The notes: a model not told the origin generated them from the letters alone. A DNA stretch of 64,000 nt from a bacterium (GCA_037130265.1 JBAXTI010000001.1:32418-96417), one strand, 5' to 3'. Numbered from the stretch's first letter, positions 8,093-64,000 are shown. Translations and numbers: made by a program.

Positions 8093-10102
8093 TTAGTCGA
8101 AATAGAAAGAGCGGCCGGTGCGCGCGGGCCGCTGGTATTCGTACGAGGCCGCTTCAACATTGTGGTCGGCGATGTCGCCGAGAAATTCCGAAGGCACGTT
8201 CATGCGTTTGCTGCCGAAGATCGTGCGCACGCCAGCGAATGTGAGGTAGAGGCGCTTCTTCGCGCGAGTGAGGGCGACGTAGAAAAGTCGGCGCTCTTCT
8301 TCAGATTCGGACTCGCTCATACGTTCCTCGCTGAGTTTCAGGTGCGGGAAGAGATCTTGTTCGAGGCCGGTGATAAAAACGTGTTCAAATTCGAGACCTT
8401 TCGAGGCATGGACGGTCATGAGCTTCACGGCGTTCTTCGCTTCTTTCATTTCGTCTTGGTCAGATTGCAGCGCGGCTTCCTCGATTAGTTTTTCGAGGCC
8501 AGAAGCCGCGCTGGTTTCTGTGCCAAGCGTCACCGGCGGCAAATGATCGTACTTTGTCGAGAGTGTCACCAATTCCTGCAAGTTTTCGAGGCGCTCGAGG
8601 TCCTCATCGGTGCCTTTTTTGTATTCGGCCTCAAGACCGCTCGCTGAAACCACGAAGCGCATCACCGAAGATGGCTTCTCTCGAGTCGCGAGATCGCGGA
8701 TCTGTGTCAGTACGTTGCGGAAGCTTTGGATTTTGTCGCGCACTGCCCCACTCAGGCTCTCTTCCTGTCCGCTAAAGATCTTCAGCAAGGTCACTTTGCC
8801 AATGCCGCGCGGCGGTTCGTTGATGATGCGCTTCAAGTCGGCCAAGCCTTGCGGATTCAACGCCGCACGCAGATACGACAGTGCATCTTTGATTTCTTTG
8901 CGTTCAAAAAACTTCGTACCGAGTAGCTGGTATGGCACACTGTGCGCCAAAAAAGCTTCCTCGAGAATGCGCGATTGGAAGTTGGCACGAAACAGCACAG
9001 CGATCTCGTTTGGCTCTACTCCGCCACGGATTAGCTCATTGGATTTCTCCGCGATGTAGTGCGCCTCCTCGACTTCGTCATATCCCTCGAACATCACGAT
9101 CTTCTCCCCTGCTCCCTGACGAGTGAAGAGATTTTTCTCGCGACGCTTCTTGTTTTTCTTGATCACCGCGTTGGCCGTATCCAAAATAGTCTTGGTGGAG
9201 CGATAATTTTCTTCGAGCGTCACGACTTTCGCTTCTGGATAGTCTTTTTCGAAATCCATGATGTTCTTGATATCCGCGCCGCGCCAGCTGTAGATGTTTT
9301 GGTCGATGTCGCCGACCACGCAGAGGTTGCGGGTCTTGCTTGCGAGCAACTTGGCGATCATGTACTGCACTTTGTTGGTGTCCTGGTACTCGTCGATGTG
9401 GATATATTTCCAAATACCCTGATACCGCTCGAGCACTTCTTTGTGATCGCGCAACAGCAGCGCGCTTTTCAGGAGAAGGTCATCGAAATCGAGTGCCTGC
9501 TCTTTCTTTAGATGCTCCTCGTACTTTTTCCAGACGGTCGCGACGATGTTGGAGAAGTATTCGTTGCTGGTGAGTCGAGTAAACGCTTCGACGGTGGTGA
9601 GATTGCCCTTTTCGCGCGAGATAACACGGAGAATTTTGGCCGGCTCGAATTGTTTTGGATCAAGGCCAGCTTCAATGACCGCTGCTTTCACCGCGCTGGT
9701 AGCATCGGTCTTGTCGAAAATAGTGAAATGTCGATTGAGACCGATGAGTCGGCTGTTCTCTTTCAAAATATGTACCCCGAGCGCGTGAAAAGTGCTCACA
9801 AAGGGTTTTTCCTCAAAGCTCACCGGCATGTTGAGGCTCTCATCTTCCCGGATCAGCTTCAGCACGCGCTCGCGCATCTCCTTGGCTGCTTTGTTGGTGA
9901 ACGTGATCGCCAATACCTGGTGTGGCGCAATTCCCTGCTTTACGATGTGCAAAATACGATGGGTGACGGTCTTGGTTTTGCCTGCTCCTGCACCGGCGAG
10001 TATCAAAAGCGGTCCTTCAATCTGCAAAACCGCCGATTTTTGTTCGGAATTAAGACTCTCGAGATGTTTCACCCGAATACTATACCATGGGGACAGCGCC
10101 AT
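8093..10102 (-). CDS. pcrA: ATP-dependent DNA helicase PcrA/UvrD family
   Basis: Carries GAGAGKTKTVTHRI (Walker A), TFTNKAAKEMRERV and the later UvrD motifs. 669 aa. Confidence 0.9.
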   Translation of the reverse strand: MALSPWYSIRVKHLESLNSEQKSAVLQIEGPLLILAGAGAGKTKTVTHRILHIVKQGIAPHQVLAITFTNKAAKEMRERVLKLIREDESLNMPVSFEEKPFVSTFHALGVHILKENSRLIGLNRHFTIFDKTDATSAVKAAVIEAGLDPKQFEPAKILRVISREKGNLTTVEAFTRLTSNEYFSNIVATVWKKYEEHLKKEQALDFDDLLLKSALLLRDHKEVLERYQGIWKYIHIDEYQDTNKVQYMIAKLLASKTRNLCVVGDIDQNIYSWRGADIKNIMDFEKDYPEAKVVTLEENYRSTKTILDTANAVIKKNKKRREKNLFTRQGAGEKIVMFEGYDEVEEAHYIAEKSNELIRGGVEPNEIAVLFRANFQSRILEEAFLAHSVPYQLLGTKFFERKEIKDALSYLRAALNPQGLADLKRIINEPPRGIGKVTLLKIFSGQEESLSGAVRDKIQSFRNVLTQIRDLATREKPSSVMRFVVSASGLEAEYKKGTDEDLERLENLQELVTLSTKYDHLPPVTLGTETSAASGLEKLIEEAALQSDQDEMKEAKNAVKLMTVHASKGLEFEHVFITGLEQDLFPHLKLSEERMSESESEEERRLFYVALTRAKKRLYLTFAGVRTIFGSKRMNVPSEFLGDIADHNVEAASYEYQRPARTGRSFYFD

Positions 10103-40430: not shown

Positions 40431-40483
40431 ACTTTATGCGCTGAATTATTTATTCGTCAATTATTATGTATCATTCCCACCCC

Positions 40484-42622
40484 ATGTCATCACTCTTCAG
40501 CAAAAAAATCCTCAGCTTTTTTATGGCAGCAGCAATGCTTCCGTTTTTTGCTCATGGGACGACGACTATATTGGCCAATGCATACTATGCGACAGGTGTT
40601 CAGCCTCATGCTGATGCAAGTATTTCTCAGATTGCATCGGCACAGGCTGCGGCTGTCTCATCTTCTCTCGCAGTTTGCCCAATCGGGACCATGCCTACAG
40701 GCTCTGCAGTCGTCACTTCGACGAATGAAGATTTCGCCGGCGTGTGGGGTGTGTTTGCTCCGGGTCGCGGCAATGTAAACGCTGCATCCAAAGGAGGCTC
40801 GAATGATTGGGGGATCACTCTCAGTGTTATTGCGCCGGGCACAAAAAATGTTAGCGCCGTGCGCCTCGACCATAGTTATGGCAATGAACGTTGGTCGACC
40901 AATAATCCGAGCGAATACCCACTTGTTGTGTACGAGGCTGACAAAAAGTTGGTGAATAAGAGCGCTGACACGTTCCTTCTTTGGGCAGGAACCCACACGT
41001 TTAAGATCTATGCTCAGTCCGAAAGTCAAAGTTTTGCCGGAGCGAAATTGACATTCATTTTTGATGACAATTCCACAGTGGCGTTTGATGTACCAGCTGT
41101 CCCAGTTGCTCCAGTTAAGCCTGTTGTGGAAATAAGCGTCGCTTCTTCCTCATCACGAACGGTGACTGGGGGCAGTGTCCAGGCGTTGATTTCTTCATAC
41201 ACAGTAGACACCTCAAAGTCGACATCGCCAGAAGGTGTTCGAATGAGTAATCTCGCTATAAACTACAAAACAAATTCAATTGCTCGGCCGAGTGACCTCA
41301 CAAGTTGTGGTCTCTATGACGGCAGTGTTGCTCTCAATAACGGTGCAAATATTCTCAATCCTATAAGCGCAAACGGTGCTTCCACGACAATCTCATTTAA
41401 TCAACCCATCGTGATTCCACGCGGTGTCATTAAGACATTTGCACTTAAATGTAATGTATCATCGAGTGCGCAAGCTGGCGCTACCTATGCATTCGATTTG
41501 GCGAGTCCCGCAACCACAGGTCTCACCAGTGTAACTTCTTCACAGAACGTGTTTCCTGCTCAGCCAAATAACACCAGCCAGCCTGTGGCTGTTGGCGTAA
41601 CCACCCTCTCTGTCTCATCCGATGCTTCAGCCCCAGCACTTAAGAATGTCTCAGCTGGTTCTGCTGGTGTAGTCCTCAATGCTTTGAAGGTTTCAGCTGT
41701 CGGTGAAGCTATTCGCCTCGACAGAATCGGACTAAAGCTCACATCCGGCAACTCAGGCAACCTCTCTGCTGTGACTATTTGGGACGGCGCCACTCAGGTG
41801 GGGCAAATGATGTTTGTTGGTTCCAATACCACAGGTACAACATCTCTATCCACCCCTGTGATTATTCCTAAAAATAGCGACAAGGTTCTTGTTGTGAAGG
41901 CGGATATTTCATCTGTTCTCGTTCCTGCAAACACAAGTGATTTGGTGCGAGTGGATTACAACGGTGCCGATGGTGCCCGTGGTGTCGGTGTAGATTCTGG
42001 CGTAACTCTCTACACTATCGGAACATTTACGAATTCCACAGGAATTCGCGTGTTTCAGTCGTTGCCTTCGGTGACTATTGATTCACTTAGTTCATCAGGT
42101 GTTTCAGATGGCAAGTTGCTGCGATTTAAGGTCACCGCAAGTGCAGGTGGTCCAATCAGCTTGGCCAAGGTCGGCCTTGTCGTAAGCGCTACTTCAGGTG
42201 TCACGGTCTATGGCATGAATATCTACGGATATCAGGATGCGTCCTACACTCAGCCTGTTTCCACAGCATCGGGCAATGGAGCTCTCGCACTCAGCACTAC
42301 TACGGTGAGTGGCAGTAGTCCTGTGAGCGTCATTGTCGCTGCGACCGGCACATCAACGGCGCTACTTATTCCGGCGGGAACTACCCGATACTTTGAGGTG
42401 CGTGCACTCGCTATTCTTGGTATAACAACCGGATCTTCGATAACGACCACTTTGGTAGGTGATTCCACCTATACCGTAGGTTTGAGCAGCGGAGCTTTTG
42501 TATGGTCACCATTCGGACGTGTCTCACAGGTACCTCTCAATGCAAATGATTGGGTGAACGGCGTCGGTGTCGTCGTTGGTCAAAATGGCAGCAATCAATT
42601 GGTTCAGATGAGGGCAATGTAA
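40484..42622 (+). CDS. large secreted S/T-rich beta-type protein (possible pilus-associated or surface adhesin)
   Basis: Signal peptide (MSSLFSKKILSFFMAAAMLPFFAHG). ~700 aa of repetitive S/T/G/V-rich sequence. Immediately upstream of pilB-pilC. Confidence 0.55.
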   Translation: MSSLFSKKILSFFMAAAMLPFFAHGTTTILANAYYATGVQPHADASISQIASAQAAAVSSSLAVCPIGTMPTGSAVVTSTNEDFAGVWGVFAPGRGNVNAASKGGSNDWGITLSVIAPGTKNVSAVRLDHSYGNERWSTNNPSEYPLVVYEADKKLVNKSADTFLLWAGTHTFKIYAQSESQSFAGAKLTFIFDDNSTVAFDVPAVPVAPVKPVVEISVASSSSRTVTGGSVQALISSYTVDTSKSTSPEGVRMSNLAINYKTNSIARPSDLTSCGLYDGSVALNNGANILNPISANGASTTISFNQPIVIPRGVIKTFALKCNVSSSAQAGATYAFDLASPATTGLTSVTSSQNVFPAQPNNTSQPVAVGVTTLSVSSDASAPALKNVSAGSAGVVLNALKVSAVGEAIRLDRIGLKLTSGNSGNLSAVTIWDGATQVGQMMFVGSNTTGTTSLSTPVIIPKNSDKVLVVKADISSVLVPANTSDLVRVDYNGADGARGVGVDSGVTLYTIGTFTNSTGIRVFQSLPSVTIDSLSSSGVSDGKLLRFKVTASAGGPISLAKVGLVVSATSGVTVYGMNIYGYQDASYTQPVSTASGNGALALSTTTVSGSSPVSVIVAATGTSTALLIPAGTTRYFEVRALAILGITTGSSITTTLVGDSTYTVGLSSGAFVWSPFGRVSQVPLNANDWVNGVGVVVGQNGSNQLVQMRAM

Positions 42623-42648
42623 AGATACTGGTAAAAACAAGACAAAAC

Positions 42649-42677
42649 AAAAAACCCGGGCATGCCCGGGTTTTTTG
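42649..42677. terminator. rho-independent terminator
   Basis: AAAAAACCCGGGCATGCCCGGGTTTTTTG. Confidence 0.6.
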
Positions 42678-42731
42678 TTTTCACACAACAGTGGATACTC
42701 CACCGTTCTGTTGGTGATATAATACACAGCA

Positions 42732-44486
42732 ATGTTCATCGAACCGAAACAGCTGAAGGAGCTCATTCTCGACTCCGGATTGGTGTCTAAGAAGGATTTC
42801 GAGGTGGCTGAGACCGAGGGTGCTGAGAAAGGCGTCGGTGTCGGACAGCTTTTGGTGACTGCTGGAAAGCTTTCAGAAGACGACCTGCGTCGTATGCAGG
42901 CATATGTGCTCGGTATTCCGTTTGTGGACCTAAAGGGACAGAAGATTGATTTTGATGTGTTGTCGATGATTCCTGAGCCAATCGCACGCAATCACAATGT
43001 GATCGCGTTCAATAAGAGCGAGGAATCTCTTGAGGTGGCAATGACCGACATCGATGACCTCGCGGCTATCGATTTCATTAAAAAGAAGACGAAGTTGAAG
43101 ATTTTGGCGCGTCTCACTGATGCCGATTCCATAAAGTCAGGTGTTTTGCAGTACCAGAAGAGTCTCAAGGCGGAATTCGGCGATATTATTCAGAAAGACA
43201 CCGCAAGTCTGAAGACTTTGGCTGACCAAGTGGGTGGAGATGCTGCTTCTGAGGGTGATTTGAAGAAAATGGCGGAGGAATTGCCGGTGATTCGTATCGT
43301 AGAGACCCTTTTGAAGCACGCGATCCTACAAAATGCGTCCGATATCCATATTGAACCGATGGAAGAGCAGATGCTGGTGCGATATCGTATCGACGGCATG
43401 CTCCACGATGCCATGGTATTGCCCAAAAACGCTATTAGCAGCGTGACCGCACGTCTCAAGGTGCTTGCCAACCTCAAGCTCGACGAGAAGCGTCTGCCGC
43501 AAGACGGCCGTTTCAAGGTGGATGTCAACAACGAGCGGGTTTCCTTCCGTGTTTCGATGCTTCCGACATATTACGGTGAAAAAACGGTAATGCGACTCCT
43601 CCGCGAGAGCGTTTCAGGCTTCACCCTCGAGGGAATGGGCTTCCATGGTCGTGGCTTGGAGTTTGTGCATCAGGCGCTCAAGCAGACTACCGGCATGATC
43701 CTCACTTCTGGTCCTACAGGCTCCGGAAAGACCACCACGCTCTACACAATGCTTGATATTGTGAATACGGCGGATGTGAATATTTCGACTATTGAAGATC
43801 CGATTGAATACCAGATGAAGCGTATCAATCAGACTCAGGTGCGTCCGGAAATTGGCTTCACTTTTTCGAGCGGTCTGCGTACCTTGGTGCGACAAGACCC
43901 GGATATCATCATGGTCGGTGAAATTCGCGACAATGAGACGGCATCTCTGGCGATCAATGCTTCGCTCACCGGACACTTGGTGCTTTCAACGCTCCACACC
44001 AACAGTGCGGCTGGTGCGATCCCTCGATTGCTTGATATGAAGGTTGAACCGTTTCTCGTGGTGTCGACGGTAAATGTCATTATCGGCCAACGTCTCATCC
44101 GCAAGCTCACCGAGAGCAAGGAGAAATACCTTTTGACGAAGGCTCAGCTTGAGTCTCTTGGCAAGAAAGTGGATCTCGACCATGTTCTTGCTCTGTTGAA
44201 GGAAGAAAAGATTATTGACCAGGCAGCTACATGGGAAAAGATTCCGTTCTACAAGCCAAAAGCCTCGAAGGATTCCGAAGATGGTTTCCATGGTCGTCTC
44301 GGTATTCATGAAGTGTTGAAAGTGACCAATACGATTCGTGAATTGGTGATGCAGGAGAAAAGTGCGTCGGAAATCGAGGCACAGGCTCGCAAGGAAGGGA
44401 TGATGACAATGCTCGAGGATGGTATTTTCAAAGCGGTAGAGGGCAGGACAACGATCGAGGAAGTGCTTCGAGTGATTTCCGAGTAG
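42732..44486 (+). CDS. pilB: type IV pilus assembly ATPase PilB (GspE family)
   Basis: N-terminal GspII_E domain, Walker A GPTGSGKTTT, Asp/His boxes. 584 aa. Confidence 0.9.
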   Translation: MFIEPKQLKELILDSGLVSKKDFEVAETEGAEKGVGVGQLLVTAGKLSEDDLRRMQAYVLGIPFVDLKGQKIDFDVLSMIPEPIARNHNVIAFNKSEESLEVAMTDIDDLAAIDFIKKKTKLKILARLTDADSIKSGVLQYQKSLKAEFGDIIQKDTASLKTLADQVGGDAASEGDLKKMAEELPVIRIVETLLKHAILQNASDIHIEPMEEQMLVRYRIDGMLHDAMVLPKNAISSVTARLKVLANLKLDEKRLPQDGRFKVDVNNERVSFRVSMLPTYYGEKTVMRLLRESVSGFTLEGMGFHGRGLEFVHQALKQTTGMILTSGPTGSGKTTTLYTMLDIVNTADVNISTIEDPIEYQMKRINQTQVRPEIGFTFSSGLRTLVRQDPDIIMVGEIRDNETASLAINASLTGHLVLSTLHTNSAAGAIPRLLDMKVEPFLVVSTVNVIIGQRLIRKLTESKEKYLLTKAQLESLGKKVDLDHVLALLKEEKIIDQAATWEKIPFYKPKASKDSEDGFHGRLGIHEVLKVTNTIRELVMQEKSASEIEAQARKEGMMTMLEDGIFKAVEGRTTIEEVLRVISE

Positions 44487-44516
44487 ATATGGAGGGAGCT
44501 TCGGCCAAAAAATATC

Positions 44517-45734
44517 ATGCCACTATTTTCATACAAAGCAGTCGATCCAAATGGCGTTTCCAGAGAGGGAACGGCTGATGCTGCGGATCGCTTTGCAGTG
44601 GCCCGTGAGCTGAAAGAGAAGGGGCTCATGCTCGTGAGTGCCGAGGAGACTCTCGAGAAGCATTCTGTGCTCGATGAGAAAATTCGTCAGCTTTTTGGTC
44701 GCATTAGCATGCGCGAGAAGATAATGTTTGCCCGTAATACGAGCGCGATGCTCGAGGCGGGCCTCACTTTGTCTCGCATCCTCTCTGTAATCGAGCGTCA
44801 ATCGAGAAATCAGAAATTCAAAGAGGTCGTATCGACGATCAACAATGAGATTCGCGGCGGCAAGACGCTGAACGAGGCCATGGTGGGCTTTCCGAAGGTA
44901 TTTTCGCCACTTTTCGTCTCCATGGTCCGCTCCGGCGAGGAATCGGGTAATCTTTCTGGTGCACTAAAGACTTTGAGTGGGCAGATGGAGAAGAGCTATT
45001 TGCTCCAGAAGCGCTTGCGGGGCGCACTTATCTATCCAGTGATCGTGATGTGTCTGATTGCTGTTATCGGTGTGCTTATGTTTATCTATGTAGTGCCGAC
45101 TCTTACGAACACATTCAAAGAGTTGCATGTGAAATTGCCATGGAGCACGCAACTCATCGTTTCGACGAGTGATTTTCTTCGATACCATACGATCGCTTTC
45201 ATTTTGGCCGTTGCCGCAGTTATTTTTGGCATCATTTTCTTCAAGCGCAGCGCTTTTGGTGGTAAGCTTATCGACAAAGTCATGCTCCGCCTACCGATTG
45301 TTGGTGTCTTGGTGAAAGAGTCCAATTCGGCTCGTACGGCCCGCACCTTATCTTCATTGCTTTCAGCCGGTGTGTCCTTTTTGGCAGCCATGGAGATCAC
45401 TCGTGATGTTGTGCAAAATATTTTTTACAAAGAAGTACTTGAAAAGGCGCGGCTGAATGTGCAGAAAGGCGACCCGATTTCAAGTGTGTTCATCGAAAAT
45501 GAGCATTTGTATCCGGCTTTTGTCGGCGAAATGACCAGTGTGGGCGAGGAAACAGGCCAATTGGCCGAAATGATGCTCGGTATTGCGACTTTTTATGAAG
45601 GAGAAGTGGAACAGAAGACGAAAGACATGTCCACAATCATTGAGCCGTTGCTCATGGTACTTATCGGTTCCGCAGTAGGATTCTTTGCCGTCTCCATGAT
45701 TAGTCCGACGTATTCACTTCTCGACAATATCTAG
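44517..45734 (+). CDS. pilC: type IV pilus inner-membrane platform protein PilC (GspF family)
   Basis: Two T2SSF repeats and three TM helices. 405 aa. Confidence 0.85.
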   Translation: MPLFSYKAVDPNGVSREGTADAADRFAVARELKEKGLMLVSAEETLEKHSVLDEKIRQLFGRISMREKIMFARNTSAMLEAGLTLSRILSVIERQSRNQKFKEVVSTINNEIRGGKTLNEAMVGFPKVFSPLFVSMVRSGEESGNLSGALKTLSGQMEKSYLLQKRLRGALIYPVIVMCLIAVIGVLMFIYVVPTLTNTFKELHVKLPWSTQLIVSTSDFLRYHTIAFILAVAAVIFGIIFFKRSAFGGKLIDKVMLRLPIVGVLVKESNSARTARTLSSLLSAGVSFLAAMEITRDVVQNIFYKEVLEKARLNVQKGDPISSVFIENEHLYPAFVGEMTSVGEETGQLAEMMLGIATFYEGEVEQKTKDMSTIIEPLLMVLIGSAVGFFAVSMISPTYSLLDNI

Positions 45735-55698: not shown

Positions 55699-55923
55699 AG
55701 GCATTCTTGCGCAAAACGATTCTCTATAGTAGAGTACGGGAACGCTTTTTCTCGAGGTGGGGCGCGGTCAAAAGCCTGCTCGACCTCAAAAAGCTTCATA
55801 ATTCAGCCACAACCATCAGGAATCTGTGAGTAATCCTCGGAAGCAAAGGGTGAAGCAACACAGACCTCCGCGCGGCCAAGCAGAATTTTATTATTCAATC
55901 GGTTTATTTATTTGCATTTCACT

Positions 55924-56340
55924 ATGCCAACCATCAATCAATTGGTGCGCCGCAAGCGAGTCAAGCTCTACCGAAAGTCAAAGGCGATTGCCTTGACCAA
56001 GAGCTTCAACACACTCAAGAACAAGCCTCGATTCTTCTACTCGCCATTTAAACGAGGAGTATGCGTTAAGGTTACGACCAAGACTCCAAAGAAGCCAAAC
56101 TCAGCAATCCGAAAGATTGCCCGAGTGCGACTTACCAACGGAATGGAAGTTACCGCATACATCCCAGGTATTGGTCACAATCTCCAGGAGCACTCAGTGG
56201 TGCTTCTCCGAGGCGGACGAGTAAAGGATGTCGGTCTCCGATACACTATCGTGCGAGGCGTGCTCGACTCAGGTGGTGTAGAAACACGACGAAAGGGTCG
56301 AAGCCAATACGGTATGAAGAAGCCAAAAGCAGCTAAATAA
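55924..56340 (+). CDS. rpsL: 30S ribosomal protein S12
   Basis: [12 protein letters not shown]...[58 protein letters not shown]. Confidence 0.9.
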
Positions 56341-56351
56341 TCCATACTCCA

Positions 56352-56822
56352 ATGAGACGAAAAGCAAAAAATCGTAATATCGTATCTCCAGACAGCGTGT
56401 ACAGCTCCCAGAAAGTAGGGAAGCTTATCAACTATTGTATGGAGCGAGGCAAGAAGAACGCCGCTCGAAAGATTGTGTACGGAGCATTCGACACTATCAA
56501 GGAGACTGCCAAGATAGAAAATCCTTTGGAGTACTTTGAGAACGCTCTCAAGAACACCGCCCCTATGGTGGAGGTGAAGTCTCGACGAGTGGGAGGTGCC
56601 AACTATCAGGTGCCAATCGAAGTCCGACCAGATCGACGACAGGCACTTTCTATCAAATGGATTGTTGATGCTGCTCGAGCAAAGAAGGGCAAGCCAATGC
56701 ATTTGAAGCTCGCAGAAGAGATCATGCTCGCTGTGAAGAACGAAGGTGAGGCCGTAAAGAAGCGTGAGAACACTCACAAGATGGCAGAGGCAAACAAGGC
56801 GTTTGCACACTTTGCTTGGTAA
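56352..56822 (+). CDS. rpsG: 30S ribosomal protein S7
   Basis: uS7 motifs. Confidence 0.9.
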   Translation: MRRKAKNRNIVSPDSVYSSQKVGKLINYCMERGKKNAARKIVYGAFDTIKETAKIENPLEYFENALKNTAPMVEVKSRRVGGANYQVPIEVRPDRRQALSIKWIVDAARAKKGKPMHLKLAEEIMLAVKNEGEAVKKRENTHKMAEANKAFAHFAW

Positions 56823-56829
56823 AGCGCTC

Positions 56830-56923
56830 AGAGAATTTTTTGGAAGGATACGCGTAAAAGTCTGGCGACTTTTCGCTCCGGCTCGGCCCGTCGGCCTGCG
56901 CAGTTCCTTCCAAAAAATTCTCT
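56830..56923. repeat. structured intergenic element, copy B: 19 nt perfect inverted-repeat arms around a 56 nt core homologous (inverted) to copy A
   Basis: Arms AGAGAATTTTTTGGAAGGA (56830-56848) and TCCTTCCAAAAAATTCTCT (56905-56923). The reverse complement of the core aligns with 45760-45815, with compensatory stem changes. Confidence 0.5.
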
Positions 56924-56933
56924 TCGCTTAGTG

Positions 56934-56960
56934 AAAAAACCGCTCAGGGAGCGGTTTTTT
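56934..56960 (+). terminator. rho-independent terminator after rpsG
   Basis: AAAAAACCGCTCAGGGAGCGGTTTTTTCTTG. Confidence 0.65.
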
Positions 56961-56999
56961 CTTGTTAAAACTAAATTTACCACGTACAATGTTCCTATC

Positions 57000-57521
57000 A
57001 TGAAAACAATTCAAAATGTTGCCTCAGGGATTTTTATCGGCGCGGTGAGTATCCTCTCTCTTATTTCGATTCTCGGGGTCTGGGACATTTTCAACAAAGA
57101 CGTTATCTCGAAGTCATTTGCAACACTTGGAATTTTGGCTGCGGTAGCCGTGGTGGTGATGGTCGCGGGAAAATTTGTTGGTGGCGGCGAAGCTGTTGAT
57201 CCAAGCGTGCCAAACGTTCCTGCTCTACCAAATCCAGCCTTCAGAATTATCCGCATTGCCACCCTCGGAGCACTTATTGTGTCGGCGGTCCTCCTCGCTT
57301 TTCTCGGGGTGTGTAGTATTTGGGAGATTATTACCGATAAGGCGATTCTCTATAAGTCACTCAGCTCCCTTGCAATCATTGCATTTTCTTCGTTCGTCAT
57401 TGTTCTCAGTTGTTTGGAGCGCGAAGACAGTCCTCTTTTGAAGCGCGGTGGCCGACTTTCTCCGGGTCTTATCCTCGTTCTCATCATTATCTTTGTCTGG
57501 ATGTTGGCTGCTCTTCTCTAA
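57000..57521 (+). CDS. hypothetical polytopic membrane protein
   Basis: About 6 TM helices. Start at ATG 57000, because the track start would read through the rpsG terminator. Confidence 0.5.
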   Translation: MKTIQNVASGIFIGAVSILSLISILGVWDIFNKDVISKSFATLGILAAVAVVVMVAGKFVGGGEAVDPSVPNVPALPNPAFRIIRIATLGALIVSAVLLAFLGVCSIWEIITDKAILYKSLSSLAIIAFSSFVIVLSCLEREDSPLLKRGGRLSPGLILVLIIIFVWMLAALL

Positions 57522-57597
57522 TCGCACCGTCTTCTCGTCTGGTGATGTCGTAGATGTCCGTTCCGCATTTTGCTGTGGCGCGGTAGAATAGGGAAGT

Positions 57598-59454
57598 ATG
57601 TGGAAGGCATTTCTTTTTGTCGCACTCGTTGCTTTTTCTGTGCTCACTCCGCACTCTCTTTTGGCTTCGGCAACTGACGGTACGATTGATGGAACAAATA
57701 AGTATGCTAAGGCTGTCGATGCCAATTTTGGTACGTTTAATTTCGGCACAACCCAAGGTGCGGTGCATGTTACGGACACCCAGCTTTCTGGCTATGCATG
57801 GAGCGACTACTACGGTTGGGTAAACTTGCGCCCGACCGGCTACGGGGTGATAAACGATGGTTCCGGTAATCTATCTGGCTACGCTTGGGGTCAAAACACT
57901 GGCTGGATCAATTTTCATCCAAGCTCGAGTAGTGTGCGCGTAGTGATCGACTCATCTGGGGATTTTTCTGGCTATGCTTGGGGGCAGAATATTGGTTGGA
58001 TCGTCTTCAATTGCACTACCAATAGTTCGTGCGGCGGTGGGTCATTCAAAGTGTCCACCGATTGGCGCCCAGCCAGCGTACGTAACGTATCTTCCGGCGG
58101 CGGTGGGGGAGGTGGTAGTGGCAGCGGCGCGCCTTCTGGGGGGACTCCACCAAGTACGCCGGCACCGACCCCTGCACCAACCCCTACGCCGACAGAGCCA
58201 CCAGCTCCGCCGCCAGAGTCTGTGCCTGAACCAACGCCTCCTCCCCCAGTCACTCCACCAGAAGTAACCCCTCCGGCACCACCGGTACAGACGCCTCAGA
58301 CAGCGCCGCCGACGCCGAGTGTTCTTAATTCAATTGCTAATTTCTTCTCTGGCTCCGGTTCTACTGGCGGAGGTTCGTCTGCAGTTGTTGATGTGGTGAG
58401 CGGTGCGGTTCAGCAGGTGAAGCAAAGTTACGAATTTGCTCAAGAGATTGCGAAAGTGGCTGCCAAAGAGACCAAGGCAGCCGTCCAAAGTCCTACTGGT
58501 TCCGTAATTACTAAAACAGTTTCAACTGTAGGTGTCATCGGTGGAGGCATTGCCTCGGCTTCTTCGCTGTTTCTTAATCCACTTTCGTTTTCAGAACTCT
58601 TTCTCATCCCGTTTCGATTGTGGGGCTTGCTCCTTGCAGCTTTCGGCTTGAAGAAGCGCTCGCGACCGTGGGGAACGGTGTATGATAGCGTCACTAAACA
58701 GCCACTCGACCCTGCCTATGTCGTGCTTCAGAATGAGAAAGGGGAGGAGGTAAACACTTCGATTACTGACCTTGATGGTCGTTATGGCTTCTTGTTGGCG
58801 CCAGGCACCTATACGATGGTGGCGAATAAGACCAACTACACCTTCCCGTCGAAGAAGCTCGCCGGACAGACTTCCGACGTCCTTTATTCTGATTTGTATT
58901 TTGGCGAGCCGATCGCAGCTTTGGAGGCCGGTGTTGTGCTCACGAAGAATATTCCGCTTGATCCGGTGAATTTCGACTGGAATGAATTCGCAAAATCGCA
59001 GCAGCAGATCTCGCGTTTCTACTCGAAACGTGATTTGATCAAGAAGCGAATTACTGACGGTGCTTTCTCAGCTGGTTTCGTGGTGGCAATCATCGCTTTC
59101 TGGGCTGCGCCGGCGCCGTACAACATTGCGATCTTCGCTTTGTATATTGCAATGCTCCTTTTGCGCATTTTTGGGGCCAAAAAGAAGGCTTTTTCAAGTA
59201 TTGTTGATGGAACAACACAGATGCCGCTCGCTTTCGCGATTGTCCGTGTCTACCTCGCTGGATTGGCTGGAGAACCACAGGAGTTGTTGCATAAGGTGAC
59301 GGATCATTTGGGTCGATTCTATGCCTTGGTGCCACCTGGCGACTACTACCTCACTGTTGAAAAGAAGAATCCTGATGAAACGTACACTTTAGTCCATAAA
59401 TCGGAGGTGTTTTCAGCGAAAAATGGAGTCATCGAAAATCATATCGTTTTGTAG
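57598..59454 (+). CDS. membrane protein with triplicated SGYAWGxNxGWIxF extracellular repeats, Pro-rich linker, TM region and two CarboxypepD_reg-like beta-sandwich modules
   Basis: Signal peptide. Repeats LSGYAWSDYYGWVNL, LSGYAWGQNTGWINF and FSGYAWGQNIGWIVF. PT-rich linker. TM helices. TDLDGRYGFLLAPGTYTM and TDHLGRFYALVPPGDYYL motifs. Confidence 0.55.
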   Translation: MWKAFLFVALVAFSVLTPHSLLASATDGTIDGTNKYAKAVDANFGTFNFGTTQGAVHVTDTQLSGYAWSDYYGWVNLRPTGYGVINDGSGNLSGYAWGQNTGWINFHPSSSSVRVVIDSSGDFSGYAWGQNIGWIVFNCTTNSSCGGGSFKVSTDWRPASVRNVSSGGGGGGGSGSGAPSGGTPPSTPAPTPAPTPTPTEPPAPPPESVPEPTPPPPVTPPEVTPPAPPVQTPQTAPPTPSVLNSIANFFSGSGSTGGGSSAVVDVVSGAVQQVKQSYEFAQEIAKVAAKETKAAVQSPTGSVITKTVSTVGVIGGGIASASSLFLNPLSFSELFLIPFRLWGLLLAAFGLKKRSRPWGTVYDSVTKQPLDPAYVVLQNEKGEEVNTSITDLDGRYGFLLAPGTYTMVANKTNYTFPSKKLAGQTSDVLYSDLYFGEPIAALEAGVVLTKNIPLDPVNFDWNEFAKSQQQISRFYSKRDLIKKRITDGAFSAGFVVAIIAFWAAPAPYNIAIFALYIAMLLLRIFGAKKKAFSSIVDGTTQMPLAFAIVRVYLAGLAGEPQELLHKVTDHLGRFYALVPPGDYYLTVEKKNPDETYTLVHKSEVFSAKNGVIENHIVL

Positions 59455-59507
59455 GTTGGAAAGGGAAAAGTTATGCACATTTTAAGCCACATTTTGGCTA
59501 TTTGACA

Positions 59508-59527
59508 TGATATAATTACTCTCGTTC
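59508..59527 (+). promoter_or_regulatory. extended -10 promoter (TGATATAAT, with TTGACA 3 nt upstream) 11 nt before the ATG of the giant ORF
   Basis: TTGACA 59502-59507. TGATATAAT 59508-59516. ATG 59528. Confidence 0.35.
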
Positions 59528-62500
59528 ATGAGCCGCTTTCTTTTTACAAGCGTTTATAGTCTTTTGGCGCAGAGAAAATACATCTTTTCCGCCTTTTTTC
59601 TTCTCTCCTTTGCGTTGTTTTTTGTCTCTCCAAACACTGTATCCGCAACTTTCGCGCCGGGCGAGACGCTTGATCCAGGCTGCTCGCCGACGGATTCGAA
59701 TTGCACTGTTTTGCAAGTTACGGCTTCGCCTGCGACAGGTAATTTTGGCATCTCGACCACCACGCCTGGTACTATTTTTTCAATAGGCAATATTGCGAAC
59801 TTTGCTGTTTCTACCACGAGTATCTATTCCACCGGCGGGTTGGATATTATCGGTTCGGGTTGTTACGCGATCAACGGTTCCTGTGTACTCGGTGGACCGG
59901 GGTCATCTCAGTGGACTACTTCCGGTTCAAAAATCTACTACAACATTGGCAATGTCGGTATCGGCACCACCACTCCAGGTCAGAAGCTGAGCGTGGCAGG
60001 AGATATCTTGGGTAACAACATCATCGGCTCATATTTCACTGGTACTACTACAGCCACTTCCACTCTCGTCGGTGGATTGGCGACCAATCTTCTCAATGTC
60101 ACTTCGACAACAGCTTCTTCTACTTTCGCTAATGGCATCAATATCACCGCTGGTTGTTTCTCTGTAAACGGTAGCTGTCTCTCTAGTGGCGGCTCCGGCA
60201 CCGTCACCTCCGTCGCTCTCTCGGGCGGCACAACTGGCCTCACTACTAGTGGGGGACCGATCACTGGTTCAGGCACCATCACGCTTTCTGGAACTCTCGC
60301 CCTCGCGAACGGCGGTACGAACGCAACCTCCTTCACCACCTCCGGAAATGCCGTCTACTACAACGGCACATCGCTTGTGACTGCGCCGACCAATAGTGCG
60401 GTCACCACGCCGTACGCTTCGTCGACCGCAATCACTTCTAGTGGGTCAGCGTATTTCGCCGGCAGCACTGGTGGCGTGGGTATCGGCACAACGGCAATCG
60501 ACACCGACACCATCCTTTCACTCAACAGGACAAGCGGCACCGCAGGTATTTCATTCATGAATAACGGCTCAACAAAGAGCTATATCGGTACAGATATCAC
60601 TGCTGGAAATCTCATCACCGGCGATTCTGCCAACGATATGGTGCTTCGAACTGCTGCTTCAACAAACATGCTCTTCGGCATCGCTTCTGTTGAAAAGTTC
60701 CGTATCAACAGCACTGGCAAGGTAGGTGTTTCCTCGAGCACCCCTTGGGGTCTCTTCTCAGTGAATCCGGACTCGCTCGGCAATGGAGTGCCTGAATTTG
60801 TCGTCGGCTCATCGACAGCTACTCATCTCGTGGTGACTGGTGGCGGCAATGTCGGCCTCGGCACCGCTAGCCCAAGCTCGATGCTTACTCTCAATCCAAA
60901 CAGCAATAGTGCAAACGGCATCCTTATCAAGCAGCTTTCAAACACTGGCTCTGCACAATCCGTCGTCCGCATTCAGAATAGCGATGCTTCAGTAGACGCC
61001 TCACTCACAGCGACCGCAGCTAGCTTCACTCCAGTGGGGATCATTGCGGCAAGCTCATTCAGCTTCACTGGCACGGCGCCGGGTGGTTTAAATATTATCA
61101 ATGAGTCGGCGGCAAATGTGACGATCTCCGCCGGCGGCACAGCAGCTTCCAATGTTGTTGCTACCTTCAAGAATGGTGGCAACGTCGGTATCGGCACCAC
61201 CACTCCAGGTCAGAAGCTGAGTGTTGCAGGGGATATTCTTGGTAACAACCATATCGGTTCGTACTTTACCGGAACTACCACAGCCACTTCCACTCTCGTC
61301 GGCGGACTGTCGGCAAACATCCTCTATGTCAGTTCGACCACTGCTTCTTCTACCTTCGCCAATGGAATCAATCTCACCGCAGGTTGCTTCTCGGTGAATG
61401 GTTCGTGTATTTCATCTAGCGGTTCTGGTACAGTCACCTCTGTCGCTCTCTCTGGTGGCACCACTGGTCTCACTACGAGCGGCGGTCCTATTACGAGCTC
61501 GGGTACACTTACGCTCGCCGGCACGCTCGCCCTCGCGAACGGTGGTACCAATGCGACTTCTTTCACCACGTCAGGCAACTCCGTGTATTACAACGGTACG
61601 GCCCTGGTGACGGCGCCAGCTTCGACGGCAGTGGTCACTCCATATGCTTCGAGTACGGTAATGAGTGCTTCGGCTTCTGCTTACTTTGCAACAGCGAGTG
61701 GTAGTGTTGGTATCGGTACCACTACACCACAGTGGTTGCTCAACTTGCAGTCCTCAACCGCTTCGCAGCTCGCGCTTTCGGCTGGAGCAGGTGTTGCACA
61801 GTGGGCATTTAGAAACGCCGGTGGCAACCTCTACTTCTCGACCACCACTACAGCTGGCACTGCCACCACTTCGACCGCAGCTTTCTCAATTTCTGGTTCT
61901 GGTTTCGGCACCACAACACTCCGCGGTTTGACTATTAGTGGCCAGGCAACTTCGACTTCGAATGTTGGCTTCAACCTCACTGCCGGCTGCTTTGCGGTGA
62001 ACGGCACCTGTGTTGGCGGTAGTGGCGGTTCGTCTCAGTGGACGACTTCCGGCTCAAATATTTACTACACCACCGGCAAGGTCGGCATTGGTACTACTTC
62101 ACCATATGCAGCACTCTCTGTACTTGGAGAGGGTGTATTCACCAATCTTTCAGCAACCTCTACCACCGCCACTTCGACCTTCGCGGGTGGATTGAATGTT
62201 GGATCAGGTGCGCTCACGTATGACTTTTCGAGCGGTGTGACCTCAATCTCAAATCTTGAGCTCGGTGCCATGTCCTTCGATACCAACGCCGGAGCAGTTT
62301 CTTGGGCCGACATGCCAGTCACTTCAGCCGCTTCTGCAGGTACTGTTCAGAGCTACGGCGCTGCTCTCGATGGCAACGAGCTTCTCACCGTGTACGGCGA
62401 GTCTGACGGTGCTGGTGGTGTGCAGAACACCGCAGTCGGTATCGCTACGACCACTCCTGGTAGTCTCTTTGCGATCGGCGGAGTTGCCAACTTCACTACG

Positions 62501-64000
62501 GGCACTACCACTTTCTCAAGCACCGGCGGCCTCGAACTCACTGGCGGTTGCTTCTCTATAAATGGCACCTGTGTTGGCGGCGGCGGGGGAGGTGGCGGGA
62601 TTTCAGCGATCGGTGACCCGGTCGGTAGTGGCACTGCCGGCTCGGCCCTCTTTGTCGACGGCAGTGGTAATCTCGGTCAAGACAACGACAACTTCTATTG
62701 GGATGCTACAAATCATCGCCTTGGAATTGCGATGGGTCCTTCGCCAAGCCTGACACATTCATTGGAGGTCGGCGGTGATTACTACAGCTCAGCTGGCAAT
62801 ATTACGCTTTCTACAGGAACCGTTTCGGCTAGTGCCGGTACATTTACTGGGACTGTGGGCGCTGGCACCCTCACGGACAACACTCTCACAATTACTGGAG
62901 GCGCCATTACTGGGGCTAGTAGTATTACCTCAAGTACGTTTACCGACGGCAGTGCTTCGTGGGCTGGCGGGACATTGAGTGGACTCATGTCGATCAGTGG
63001 TACAACCCTCACAGATGGCTTCTTTTCGGTAAGTGGAGGTACGATTAGTGGGGCTACTTGGAATGGAAACGCTATTGCAAGTCAATACGGTGGAACGGGT
63101 GCGGACACGAGCGGCGCAAGCGGCATTGCGCACGTCTCGGCCGGCTCATGGTCTTTCGGTGCCGTTGATTTGAGCTCGAGTGATGTTACCGGTACATTAT
63201 CAGTGTCAAAAGGCGGTACAGGATTGACGACGTTTGGTGGCACTAACACTATTTTGTACACTTCATCGGCTGATTCTCTCTCTTATCTTGCCTCAGCCGC
63301 TGACAGTGTTTTGGTCACCGATGGTGCCGGGACGCCTTCCTTGTCGTCTACTCTTCCAAGCGCAGTACAGGGGAACATCACGGCGCTTGGGGCGGTTTCA
63401 ACTCTCACCTCACTCTCTGACGGTGTTGCGACGTGGAGTGGTTTCACGAACGCTCTCACCGGTTTTTCATCAGTCTCTGCTACAACGCTTACAGATGGTA
63501 CATTCTCCGTGTCTGGCGGTACGATAACTGGAGCGACCGGTATCACATCTAGCGGTACAATCACTTTCTCAGGCCTTGGGGGTGTTTCCGGCGGAGAGAC
63601 GGCTGTGTGTATTGCGGGAGGTGTATTGTATGACGGTGGCGGCACGGATTGTACGTCATCGTCTCGTCGTTTCAAGCACGACATCGAAAGCCTTACTGCC
63701 GCTGACGGTCTCGCTTTGGTAAAGGCGCTTCGCCCGGTAAGCTTCAAGTTCAATAATGACAATTCAGAGCACGTCGGCTTTATTGCTGAAGAAGTTTCAG
63801 AGCTTGAGCCACGTCTCACCGTATACGAACCAGCATCAACGACTCCTCATGGTGTTCGATATGCTGAAATGACCGCTGTTCTTGCCAAGGCGATTCAAGA
63901 GCAGCAGGTGCAGATCGACTCGTTGCAGGCTCGAGTGGGTTCTACTACCGACGCCGGGGTGGGTAGTGTAGCGAGCGTTATTTCGGCGCTGCAGTCCTTC
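59528..64000 (+). CDS. giant secreted tail-fiber-like repeat protein with C-terminal S74-type (intramolecular chaperone) domain; runs off the window end
   Basis: Manual translation from the ATG at 59528 has no stop through 63999 (>1490 aa). Signal peptide. Repeated W..SGS.IYY..G.VGIGTT.P...L.V.G modules. C-terminal SSRRFKHDIESL...LRPVSFKFNNDN...GFIAEEV...P motif as in Peptidase_S74 tail-fiber domains. Not in the ORF track because it has no stop within the window. Confidence 0.7.
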   Translation, partial: MSRFLFTSVYSLLAQRKYIFSAFFLLSFALFFVSPNTVSATFAPGETLDPGCSPTDSNCTVLQVTASPATGNFGISTTTPGTIFSIGNIANFAVSTTSIYSTGGLDIIGSGCYAINGSCVLGGPGSSQWTTSGSKIYYNIGNVGIGTTTPGQKLSVAGDILGNNIIGSYFTGTTTATSTLVGGLATNLLNVTSTTASSTFANGINITAGCFSVNGSCLSSGGSGTVTSVALSGGTTGLTTSGGPITGSGTITLSGTLALANGGTNATSFTTSGNAVYYNGTSLVTAPTNSAVTTPYASSTAITSSGSAYFAGSTGGVGIGTTAIDTDTILSLNRTSGTAGISFMNNGSTKSYIGTDITAGNLITGDSANDMVLRTAASTNMLFGIASVEKFRINSTGKVGVSSSTPWGLFSVNPDSLGNGVPEFVVGSSTATHLVVTGGGNVGLGTASPSSMLTLNPNSNSANGILIKQLSNTGSAQSVVRIQNSDASVDASLTATAASFTPVGIIAASSFSFTGTAPGGLNIINESAANVTISAGGTAASNVVATFKNGGNVGIGTTTPGQKLSVAGDILGNNHIGSYFTGTTTATSTLVGGLSANILYVSSTTASSTFANGINLTAGCFSVNGSCISSSGSGTVTSVALSGGTTGLTTSGGPITSSGTLTLAGTLALANGGTNATSFTTSGNSVYYNGTALVTAPASTAVVTPYASSTVMSASASAYFATASGSVGIGTTTPQWLLNLQSSTASQLALSAGAGVAQWAFRNAGGNLYFSTTTTAGTATTSTAAFSISGSGFGTTTLRGLTISGQATSTSNVGFNLTAGCFAVNGTCVGGSGGSSQWTTSGSNIYYTTGKVGIGTTSPYAALSVLGEGVFTNLSATSTTATSTFAGGLNVGSGALTYDFSSGVTSISNLELGAMSFDTNAGAVSWADMPVTSAASAGTVQSYGAALDGNELLTVYGESDGAGGVQNTAVGIATTTPGSLFAIGGVANFTTGTTTFSSTGGLELTGGCFSINGTCVGGGGGGGGISAIGDPVGSGTAGSALFVDGSGNLGQDNDNFYWDATNHRLGIAMGPSPSLTHSLEVGGDYYSSAGNITLSTGTVSASAGTFTGTVGAGTLTDNTLTITGGAITGASSITSSTFTDGSASWAGGTLSGLMSISGTTLTDGFFSVSGGTISGATWNGNAIASQYGGTGADTSGASGIAHVSAGSWSFGAVDLSSSDVTGTLSVSKGGTGLTTFGGTNTILYTSSADSLSYLASAADSVLVTDGAGTPSLSSTLPSAVQGNITALGAVSTLTSLSDGVATWSGFTNALTGFSSVSATTLTDGTFSVSGGTITGATGITSSGTITFSGLGGVSGGETAVCIAGGVLYDGGGTDCTSSSRRFKHDIESLTAADGLALVKALRPVSFKFNNDNSEHVGFIAEEVSELEPRLTVYEPASTTPHGVRYAEMTAVLAKAIQEQQVQIDSLQARVGSTTDAGVGSVASVISALQSF

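Follow-up and report, generated by a model that had tools for sequence, protein, structure and literature searches.

We analysed a 64,000-nucleotide (nt) stretch of bacterial DNA (GCA_037130265.1 JBAXTI010000001.1:32418-96417), in the following called the window, at the end of which lies a gene for a giant fibre-like protein with a Peptidase_S74 (S74) chaperone domain. An earlier interpretation of this DNA, the sequence-only reading, had proposed an open reading frame (ORF) of more than 4.47 kb without a stop codon in the window. Indeed, frame 1 is open on the plus strand for 1491 codons from the ATG at 59528 up to base 64000, and neither a frameshift nor a stop was found on re-inspection. The window belongs to ENA contig ERZ4222710 NODE_94 (L001, 99.7 kb), with which its last 1001 nt are 100% identical; window positions equal L001 positions plus 47597. 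Extension along this contig located the stop codon at L001:16908-16910, equivalent to window position 64507, so that the ORF continues for 507 nt and 168 extra codons past the window end and the complete fibre protein comprises 1659 amino acids (aa; coding sequence L001:11931-16910).

An identical protein is deposited at NCBI as MEI6345703.1 under the name 'MAG: immunoglobulin-like domain-containing protein [bacterium]', where MAG stands for metagenome-assembled genome, and a scan of the protein against NCBIfam assigned it to no family. Its composition is dominated by T (15.5%), G (14.7%), S (14.2%) and A (10.5%), which together account for 55% of all residues, in agreement with the G/T/S-rich sequence described before. 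The gene is real, complete and well supported. The proposal of a giant exported fibre-like protein is likewise supported. Two antisense ORFs at 59980-60339 and 63283-63819, already suspected to be artefacts, gave no Pfam match and overlap a frame with strong homology; they were therefore judged spurious. The features of the fibre gene within the window are as follows.

59528-64000, plus strand: fibre coding sequence, aa 1-1491 of 1659 (ORF, parent contig, MEI6345703.1)
59528-59647, plus strand: predicted Sec signal peptide, aa 1-40 (hydropathy, conserved motif directly after it)
59648-59713, plus strand: N-terminal cap motif (T)FAPGETLDPGCSPTDSNCTVL, aa 41-62, with the first Cys pair C52/C59 (common to homologues)
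59861-59884, plus strand: first 'GC(F/Y)x(V/I)NG(S/T)C' Cys-x6-Cys loop (motif; presumed disulfide)
59942-60490, plus strand: repeat copy A, aa 139-321 (in-frame repeat; a single fibre module of ~180 aa)
59954-59991, plus strand: 38-nt identical tract, copy 1, encoding VGIGTTTPGQKLS, a capping-loop-like motif (sequence identity)
60155-60178, 61385-61408, 61988-62011 and 62549-62572, plus strand: other four Cys-x6-Cys loops (motif)
60818-61231, plus strand: Bd2133-like segment, aa 431-568 (phmmer against PDB, 8OND_A, E=3.3e-7)
61172-61720, plus strand: repeat copy B, aa 549-731 (shares 85% of its residues and 74% of its nucleotides with copy A)
61184-61221, plus strand: 38-nt identical tract, copy 2 (sequence identity)
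62867-63961, plus strand: distal region and chaperone, aa 1114-1478 (PHROG phrog_1980 'tail fiber protein', E=3.7e-13)
63608-63652, plus strand: Cys pair C1361...C1375, directly preceding the cleavage motif (columns conserved across 55 homologues)
63659-63943, plus strand: S74 chaperone/autocleavage domain, aa 1378-1472 (Pfam, PDB alignments, structure prediction, Foldseek)
63659-63661, plus strand: codon of Ser1378, predicted nucleophile (first residue of the Pfam S74 match)
63674-63676, plus strand: codon of Lys1383, predicted general base (Ser-x4-Lys dyad)
63944-64000, plus strand: start of the post-chaperone module, aa 1473-1491 (rest at L001:16347-16907)

The embedded S74 chaperone

The sequence-only reading had recognised a motif typical of S74 domains, and a hidden Markov model search confirmed it. 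Pfam Peptidase_S74 (PF13884) matches aa 1378-1428 with E=4e-11 and 43.4-43.6 bits at a gathering cutoff of 22. In a phmmer search against PDB, aa ~1376-1472 align to the last ~100 residues of the phage tail fibre 8jov, up to the end of its chain, and a profile made from five chaperone sequences also matches the tip of the S16-type phage long tail fibre (6f45). An AlphaFold2 (AF2) model of aa 1258-1659 reached predicted local distance difference test (pLDDT) scores of 72-93 for the chaperone and 82-95 for an immunoglobulin-like (Ig-like) domain following it. The modelled chaperone consists of strands and a subsequent 27-residue helix (about aa 1445-1471), predicted to form a coiled coil, in agreement with the S74 fold, a small beta 'donut' and a long helix that builds a trimeric coiled coil, and Foldseek matched the chaperone model to the ICA domain of MyRF (7dc3) with E=2e-4 and a TM-score of 0.64. 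A tblastn search of phage genomes returned 43 matching records with 31-40% identity over ~120 aa of the chaperone alone, and none of these genomes matched the module downstream of it.

The motif SSRRFK places S1378 and K1383 five residues apart. We regard these residues as the catalytic dyad, as the same spacing is found for S911/K916 of endoNF and S587/K592 of MyRF, both of which cut immediately N-terminal to the serine and only in the trimer (PMC8326128). A cellular precedent is provided by the mosaic adhesive trimer (MAT) fibres of Bdellovibrio bacteriovorus (Caulton et al. 2024, PMC10769870), an S74 subgroup of which includes Bd3182; this protein cleaves itself at its serine, and a Ser-to-Ala mutant does not. 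We selected 52 homologues solely by the chaperone core that follows the dyad, so that the dyad played no part in the choice. Of these, 50 carry S-x4-K upstream of the core, and in one of the two exceptions (P0098) the motif is displaced by an insertion. From these conserved residues, autocleavage is predicted to occur between S1377 and S1378.

Canonical S74 chaperones form the last ~110-150 residues of a protein. The C-terminal position assigned to the domain in the sequence-only reading did not hold for the complete protein, in which 187 residues follow the aligned chaperone end at aa 1472 and Ser1378 lies 282 residues, itself included, from the C-terminus. These residues comprise a helix and a Cys hairpin 'KLCVDDVCIDKAQLKTLL' (aa 1473-1537), an S/T linker, an Ig-like domain of family PF16403 (aa 1565-1635, 62.8 bits) and a P/E/T-rich tail PAAPEPTPEPAPTPEPTPTEGN. 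Homologues are built similarly, the distance from the serine to the C-terminus having a median of 291.5 aa and reaching at least 200 aa in 45 of 50. A search with the 65-aa post-chaperone segment against 1.84 billion representative proteins yielded 59 clusters, in which the segment is located nearly always ~100-180 aa from the C-terminus. The proteins with this element contain S74 in 36 of 44 cases, and C1517 and C1522 are invariant. An Ig-like domain was found in only 8 of these 44 and is therefore considered a frequent but optional addition. The Cys-hairpin extension is therefore a clade-specific ~65-aa appendix of the chaperone with an invariant CxxxxC, and the embedded position of S74 is a family trait.

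The long C-terminal part could be understood differently if S74 were an uncleaved internal trimerisation hub, or if the cleaved fragment stayed bound, so that three Ig-like domains on flexible S/T-rich linkers would constitute the actual binding tip at the distal end of the fibre. Such an arrangement would agree with the strong conservation of the PF16403 domain (70-80% identity between the paralogues P0001 and P0060), with more than 200 aa after the dyad in most homologues and with MyRF as a precedent for an embedded ICA domain with regulated cleavage (PMC8326128). Moreover, the modelled Ig-like domain matched bacterial Ig-like domains in Foldseek and resembles modules of the Gram-positive adhesins and S-layer proteins SraP, Rib and SlpX. 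However, the retention of the dyad in nearly all homologues argues for selection on catalysis, the dyad cleaves in every characterised S74 protein (PMC10769870, PMC8326128), and an Ig-like domain that is optional can hardly represent the core function. We regard an uncleaved or permanently bound module as unlikely and prefer self-cleavage of the fibre in front of Ser1378.

Signal peptide, shaft and internal repeats

The predicted signal peptide shows basic residues (R3, R16, K17), a hydrophobic core (aa 19-33) and V-S-A at the predicted cut, and the region of aa 19-33 is the sole segment of the protein with a 19-aa hydropathy above 1.6. A conserved short Cys-loop cap, reading APGETLDPxCxPxxxNC, follows: the motif (T)FAPGETLDPGCSPTDSNC at aa 41-62 is common to P0011, P0012, P0022 and P0050, where it is also found directly after hydrophobic N-termini. 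As the cap begins right after the hydrophobic stretch in five proteins, signal cleavage just before aa 41 is supported. In 23 of the 120 homologues listed, the signal peptide is replaced by a helix-turn-helix (HTH)-like domain and a transmembrane (TM) helix (aa ~110-240), followed by the giant fibre. This N-terminus is conserved as '...DYIGQLCRxGKI...GRxWYV' and in some proteins matches Pfam HTH_17 (examples are P0003, P0005, P0013, P0017, P0021 and P0053). Such proteins would combine a cytoplasmic domain of DNA-binding type with an extracellular S74 fibre, in a loosely MyRF-like manner. Both these N-termini and the orientation of phage and MAT fibres suggest that the N-terminus is located at the cell and the S74 end is distal.

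The shaft (aa ~70-1275) is composed of about seven divergent copies of a ~180-aa module with a mutual identity of 25-29%, each carrying a 'GxVGIGTTxPxxxL' motif, and multiple module copies are present in all 120 homologues listed. Altogether, eight motifs of the type VG(I/V/L)(G/S/A)(T/S)xxPxxx(L/F) were counted; of the IYY..VGIGTT modules proposed earlier, the VGIGTT part is thus recovered, whereas 'IYY' precedes only two of the motifs. The 'GCFxVNGxC' loop also occurs in many shaft modules, and all 16 Cys of the protein are arranged as close pairs, as expected of an extracellular protein with presumed disulfide bonds. For aa 41-1377, Bd2133 (8OND) was the only PDB match found by phmmer; the alignment spans two capping-loop motifs and falls in the beta-helix and capping-loop region of Bd2133. 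S74 chaperones fold a triple beta-helix or beta-prism located directly in front of them; here, the 120 residues before S74, which are G/T/S-rich, repeat-like and inside the PHROG tail-fibre match, had a pLDDT below 50 in the monomeric AF2 model. Searches of Pfam and PDB revealed no recognisable lectin or enzyme tip in the fibre.

Two of the modules, copies A and B, are in-frame repeats of 183 codons (~550 nt) at an offset of 1230 nt. They had been described before as units at 59954-60415 and 61184-61645 starting with 38 identical nucleotides, which proved correct, the full in-frame repeat being slightly larger. The copies differ by 96 synonymous and 46 nonsynonymous substitutions, with a proportion of synonymous differences (pS) of 0.62, a synonymous divergence (dS) of 1.32 and a ratio of nonsynonymous to synonymous divergence (dN/dS) of 0.096 by the Nei-Gojobori method. 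The low dN/dS agrees with the proposed protein-level constraint, and the saturated dS indicates that the duplication is old. Against this background, the 12 consecutive identical codons are not a chance result (permutation p=0.0005), nor are they explained by codon preference, as other copies of the motif in the gene use different codons. Recent gene conversion, as suggested by the sequence-only reading, is therefore consistent with the 38-nt tract but not with the rest of the repeat.

A second fibre gene of the same MAG, located on a contig of equal coverage, encodes the paralogue P0060 (1651 aa, MEI6345989.1). It contains two copies of a 35-aa motif SGNLGIGTTTPGQKLSVAGDILGNNIIGSYFTATS at L003:9366-9470 and 9990-10094, 624 nt apart, which share a 64-nt identical run in otherwise unrelated flanking sequence. 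Between the two fibre genes the motif is 88-94% identical at the aa level and is written with different codons, for instance CTG-AGC versus CTT-TCG for Leu-Ser. Identical codons were counted at 19 of 31 and 26 of 31 aa-identical motif positions within the genes and at only 9-14 of 28-30 positions between them. Gene conversion between the paralogous fibre genes was rejected on account of these codon differences. Apparently, short tracts evolve in concert within each fibre gene independently, with no exchange between the paralogues. The direct repeats are in frame and could allow 410 or 208 residues to be deleted or duplicated. The 90% identity cluster of the fibre protein has a single member, the collections containing no close strain variants. 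The only other assembly, the independent Logan assembly L002 (run SRR12676966), ends at codon 152 (window position ~59983), inside the 38-nt tract, which is the behaviour expected of a k-mer assembler and indicates that short-read assemblies fragment, or could mis-join, such genes at the homogenised motif.

Gene neighbourhood, promoter and taxon

The elements located upstream of the fibre gene are listed below.

55912-56822, plus strand: rpsL and rpsG, upstream neighbours (with fusA, parts of the str operon)
57000-57521, plus strand: multi-pass membrane protein, 173 aa (upstream neighbour)
57598-59454, plus strand: envelope protein, 618 aa (signal peptide, repeats, Pro-rich linker, TM helices, CarboxypepD_reg)
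59502-59507, plus strand: TTGACA hexamer (not a functional -35 for the adjacent -10)
59508-59516, plus strand: extended -10 element TGATATAAT (perfect extended -10, ending 11 nt ahead of the fibre ATG)

The fibre gene and two membrane-protein genes are inserted between rpsG (56352-56822), which follows rpsL (55912-56340), and fusA (L001:16993-19137), and the str operon is thus interrupted by three envelope genes. A PHROG scan of the two membrane-protein neighbours gave no match. The 618-aa protein encoded directly upstream of the fibre gene (57598-59454, plus strand) contains, after its signal peptide, three 'SGYAW(S/G)xxxGW(I/V)NF' repeats; next come a long linker rich in Pro, TM helices and a transthyretin-like CarboxypepD_reg domain. 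Co-expression of this protein with the fibre is possible, and its adjacency would be compatible with a functional link. Further upstream, genes for RecJ, RNase H, ComEC, a metallo-beta-lactamase-fold protein, an Fe/Mn superoxide dismutase, ribosomal protein L28 and an M50 peptidase were identified. The window also encodes four tRNAs, NusA, RNase Y, PNPase, the CCA-adding enzyme, UvrD, TIM, PGK and type IV pilus genes. The latter form a type IV pilus/secretion cluster (40466-45734, plus strand) directly upstream of the genes for TIM and PGK, consisting of a PilB-type ATPase (T2SSE, 42732-44486), a PilC-type platform protein (T2SSF, 44517-45734) and a 718-aa protein. Two large ORFs, that for the 718-aa protein (40466-42622, plus strand) and one of 844 aa (1641-4175, minus strand), had no Pfam match at E<=0.001.

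Homologues of the fibre protein are numerous (697 at E<=1e-5). Among the 120 homologues listed, every source is named either as an unclassified 'bacterium' or as a lineage of Patescibacteria (Zambryskibacteria, Paceibacterota, Giovannonibacteria, Niyogibacteria, Vogelbacteria, Taylorbacteria, Parcubacteria). The nearest locus in a reference genome, found in a search with the alignment of five chaperone sequences, belongs to a Candidatus Parcubacteria MAG and is 79% identical across the chaperone. The genome under study is cellular and belongs to Patescibacteria (Parcubacteria-like); it is not viral.

In three Patescibacteria genomes, giant fibre genes adjoin ribosomal-protein operons (window 55912-59454 with L001:16993-19137; L004:8-5195; L084:4671-14146). 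In the closest relative (L004), the fibre gene is situated immediately upstream of rpsL-rpsG, and in a closed Giovannonibacteria genome the homologue P0053 is located after rpsP-khpA-trmD. The paralogue P0060 is an exception, its neighbours being aminoacyl-tRNA synthetase, ScpAB, FtsW and MurG genes. The closest relative, Ca. Parcubacteria MAG JBDKKW010000011.1, additionally encodes a vault-like protein of 856 aa (L004:5565-8135) with Major Vault Protein shoulder (PF11978, E=4e-23) and Vault_3 repeat domains, which is thus present in a bacterium of the Candidate Phyla Radiation (CPR). Its gene lies ~0.8 kb downstream of rpsG, past an ORF of 160 aa.

The sequence-only reading had assigned a TTGACA promoter to the fibre gene. 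The promoter element TGATATAAT was indeed found, whereas TTGACA cannot serve as the -35 of the TATAAT at 59511-59516, as the spacer between them is 3 nt instead of the required 16-18 nt; a scan for sigma-70 consensus promoters did not call the two hexamers as a pair. A canonical -35/-10 promoter was consequently rejected. No Shine-Dalgarno sequence is present between TGATATAAT and the fibre ATG, and the position of the element implies that the transcript is probably a near-leaderless mRNA with a leader of ~4-5 nt. Similar elements are common across the window, for which we compared the first ATGs of ORFs of at least 120 aa (n=71) with internal ATGs (n=230). TAnnnT at -17 to -5 precedes 26 of the 71 gene starts and 18 of the 230 internal ATGs, and the corresponding numbers are 10 and 4 for TGnTAnnnT and 3 and 19 for Shine-Dalgarno-like motifs. 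The TGnTAnnnT or TAnnnT motifs end ~6-12 nt before the ATG, for example at 20419, 42732, 45862 and, on the minus strand, at 54126, 19076, 17128 and 7256. These counts suggest widespread leaderless transcription and translation in the source organism, and it is likely that the fibre gene is served by a separate promoter of this frequent kind.

Two further explanations were considered. The protein might be a structural envelope component, namely an S-layer-associated or a sheath or spacer fibre without a specific ligand, in which the repeats would set the length. The highly repetitive shaft of low complexity, the proximity to strongly expressed ribosomal-protein operons in three genomes, the neighbouring envelope proteins, the similarity of the Ig-like domain to those of S-layer proteins and the missing lectin or enzyme tip would all suit such a component. 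On the other hand, in the characterised relatives, namely phage fibres, endosialidases and MAT fibres, S74 serves the maturation of a tip at the distal end that binds or acts as an enzyme (PMC10769870), and the distal 260 aa are the part of our protein that resembles phage receptor-binding fibres. In addition, two or more strongly diverged paralogues, with only the terminal module in common, have been retained in the genome, a pattern expected of diversified specificities. We consider a purely structural role improbable. A phage or prophage tail-fibre gene, encoding a receptor-binding fibre of a virion whose terminal chaperone is cleaved off, comes close to the view of the sequence-only reading but is the least plausible explanation and was rejected: it would account for the S74 domain, the PHROG tail-fibre family match and the tblastn matches to cyanophage and Roseobacter phage proteins annotated as tail fibres, but the gene is flanked by rpsL, rpsG and fusA with ComEC and RecJ nearby, its membrane-protein neighbours have no PHROG counterpart, its GC content (0.54 versus ~0.50 in the surroundings) deviates only slightly, as a G/T/S/A-rich protein could explain, the similarity to phages is confined to the chaperone at low identity, the paralogue and all homologues examined are found among housekeeping genes, a Sec-type signal peptide, which virion fibres lack, is present, and no capsid, portal, terminase or baseplate genes or attachment sites were found over the 100-kb contig and four independent loci.

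Proposed role and relation to known systems

Taken together, we think it probable that the gene encodes a giant cell-surface fibre of Patescibacteria, a cellular protein related to the receptor-binding fibres of phages and to the MAT fibres of Bdellovibrio. It can credibly be described as a Patescibacterial variant, not characterised before, of the trimeric fibres matured by S74, a Sec-exported, beta-helical adhesin and candidate for host recognition. According to this proposal, the gene would be transcribed from the extended -10 promoter as a near-leaderless mRNA and the protein would be exported via Sec using the 40-aa signal peptide. The ~1,300-residue shaft probably adopts the form of a trimeric beta-helix; it consists of about seven ~180-aa modules with capping-loop motifs and Cys-x6-Cys loops of the disulfide type. 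The S74 chaperone (aa 1378-1472) would trimerise via its terminal helix and nucleate or template the folding of the upstream shaft from the C-terminal side. After trimer formation, Ser1378 and Lys1383 would cut the bond between S1377 and S1378, whereby the 282-aa fragment of chaperone, extension, Ig-like domain and tail would be released or at least unlinked. The distal, phage-tail-fibre-like tip of the mature fibre (~aa 41-1377, ~1,340 residues) would then be exposed for a surface ligand, by analogy probably on a host or partner cell.

Several points weigh against this proposal. Export, trimerisation, cleavage and ligand binding are all steps that we infer, and host recognition by the source organism is an analogy. 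Cleavage would entail the loss of a conserved Ig-like domain together with the chaperone, which could mean that no cleavage occurs or that the fragment stays attached, and the second exception among the 52 homologues, P0027, lacks the dyad. An AF2 monomer model of the shaft segment aa 390-739, based on an alignment of 12 sequences, had a mean pLDDT of only 42 and is uninformative, so that the triple beta-helix is deduced solely from the sequence similarity to Bd2133. Neither an LPXTG motif nor a C-terminal TM helix was found in the fibre protein as a cell anchor. Finally, the fibre module aligns from aa 26 and the first fibre motif is at aa 73, which seemingly leaves no room for an N-terminal domain as present in MAT fibres.

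Beyond the surface fibre as such, one can speculate that Patescibacteria recognise host or partner cells by phage-style fibres in which S74 acts as an internal, regulated maturation switch; the fibre would be exported in a state 'capped' by the trimeric fragment of chaperone and Ig-like domain and become adhesive only after self-cleavage. Where modules meet, the short homogenised in-frame tracts (38 nt in the gene described here and 64 nt in its paralogue) might in addition let the cell delete or duplicate modules of 410 or 208 aa, thereby varying the fibre length or reshuffling its modules, as a cellular counterpart of phage host-range switching. We advance this extended scenario tentatively and regard it as doubtful.

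Partner finding and attachment of the ultra-small CPR/Patescibacteria are poorly understood; work on cultivated Saccharibacteria points to type IV pili and a few predicted adhesins. The fibres described here constitute a large family in Patescibacteria (697 homologues, 59 clusters) which combines a MAT-like shaft with a phage-type chaperone predicted to be self-cleaving. The family is widespread and automatically annotated in databases, where it is labelled only as 'immunoglobulin-like' or 'tail fiber domain-containing', and our finding is not categorically new. Full-text searches of the literature library revealed no paper that connects Patescibacteria with Peptidase_S74 or MAT fibres, and CPR papers examined for fibres mention none. 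Should the proposed mechanism hold, these proteins would be concrete, clonable candidates for determinants of CPR host specificity and would represent the second cellular embedded S74 switch after MyRF. If it is wrong, the protein is simply another repetitive envelope protein.

Among known systems, the MAT fibres, which are trimeric throughout, exposed at the surface and bind molecules on the prey surface, share the largest number of traits with our protein. Both are cellular proteins with a signal peptide and a very long beta-rich shaft with repeated capping-loop motifs, the segment aa 431-568 is similar to Bd2133 (E=3.3e-7), and an S-x4-K S74 domain is found on the C-terminal side. Several diverged paralogues are present per genome, and a life on other cells is plausible for the organism. 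MAT-like proteins have been listed in the literature for Micavibrio, Uabimicrobium, Omnitrophica and Dokdonia, and this list includes no Patescibacteria. The capping-loop consensus of MAT fibres is V-G-G/N-pi-x-x-P-x-x-x-L (PMC10769870), whereas the loop of our protein is one residue longer (VGIGTTTPGQKL). The cleavage motif is SSxxxK here and SDxxxK in MAT fibres, which end in S74, while 187 residues follow in our protein. Furthermore, MAT fibres have a length of about 1000 aa compared with 1659 aa here, and they possess a conserved beta-rich N-terminal domain of ~130 aa, for which there seems to be no space here. Scaled from Bd3182 (922 aa, about 55 nm), the fibre described here would measure some 70-80 nm. 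A further difference is that the host phylum (Patescibacteria) is not known to have an outer membrane.

Phage S74 fibres, tailspikes and endosialidases, such as K1F endoNF, the T5 L-shaped fibre and the structures 8jov and 6f45, are homologous in the S74 domain and share the Ser-Lys dyad five residues apart as well as the terminal helix. In contrast to them, the fibre described here is a non-virion protein encoded outside a phage genome, its chaperone is embedded and only 31-40% identical, and it carries a Sec signal. The ICA domain of MyRF (7dc3; PMC8326128) is the best structural match and is likewise located in the middle of a protein with downstream domains; its Ser-x4-Lys dyad has the same spacing and cleaves only in the trimer. 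However, MyRF is a eukaryotic transcription factor of the endoplasmic reticulum membrane with a TM helix after the ICA domain and a DNA-binding domain as N-terminal product, whereas no TM helix follows the chaperone of our protein and the N-terminal product would be a fibre, predicted to be extracellular. Finally, the fold of aa 1565-1635 is that of the Ig-like modules (PF16403/Big_3-type) of Gram-positive adhesins and S-layer proteins, as represented by 2kpn, SraP, Rib and SlpX. There, the modules serve the mature protein as stalk or binding units, whereas the Ig-like domain of the Patescibacterial fibre is located downstream of the predicted self-cleavage site.

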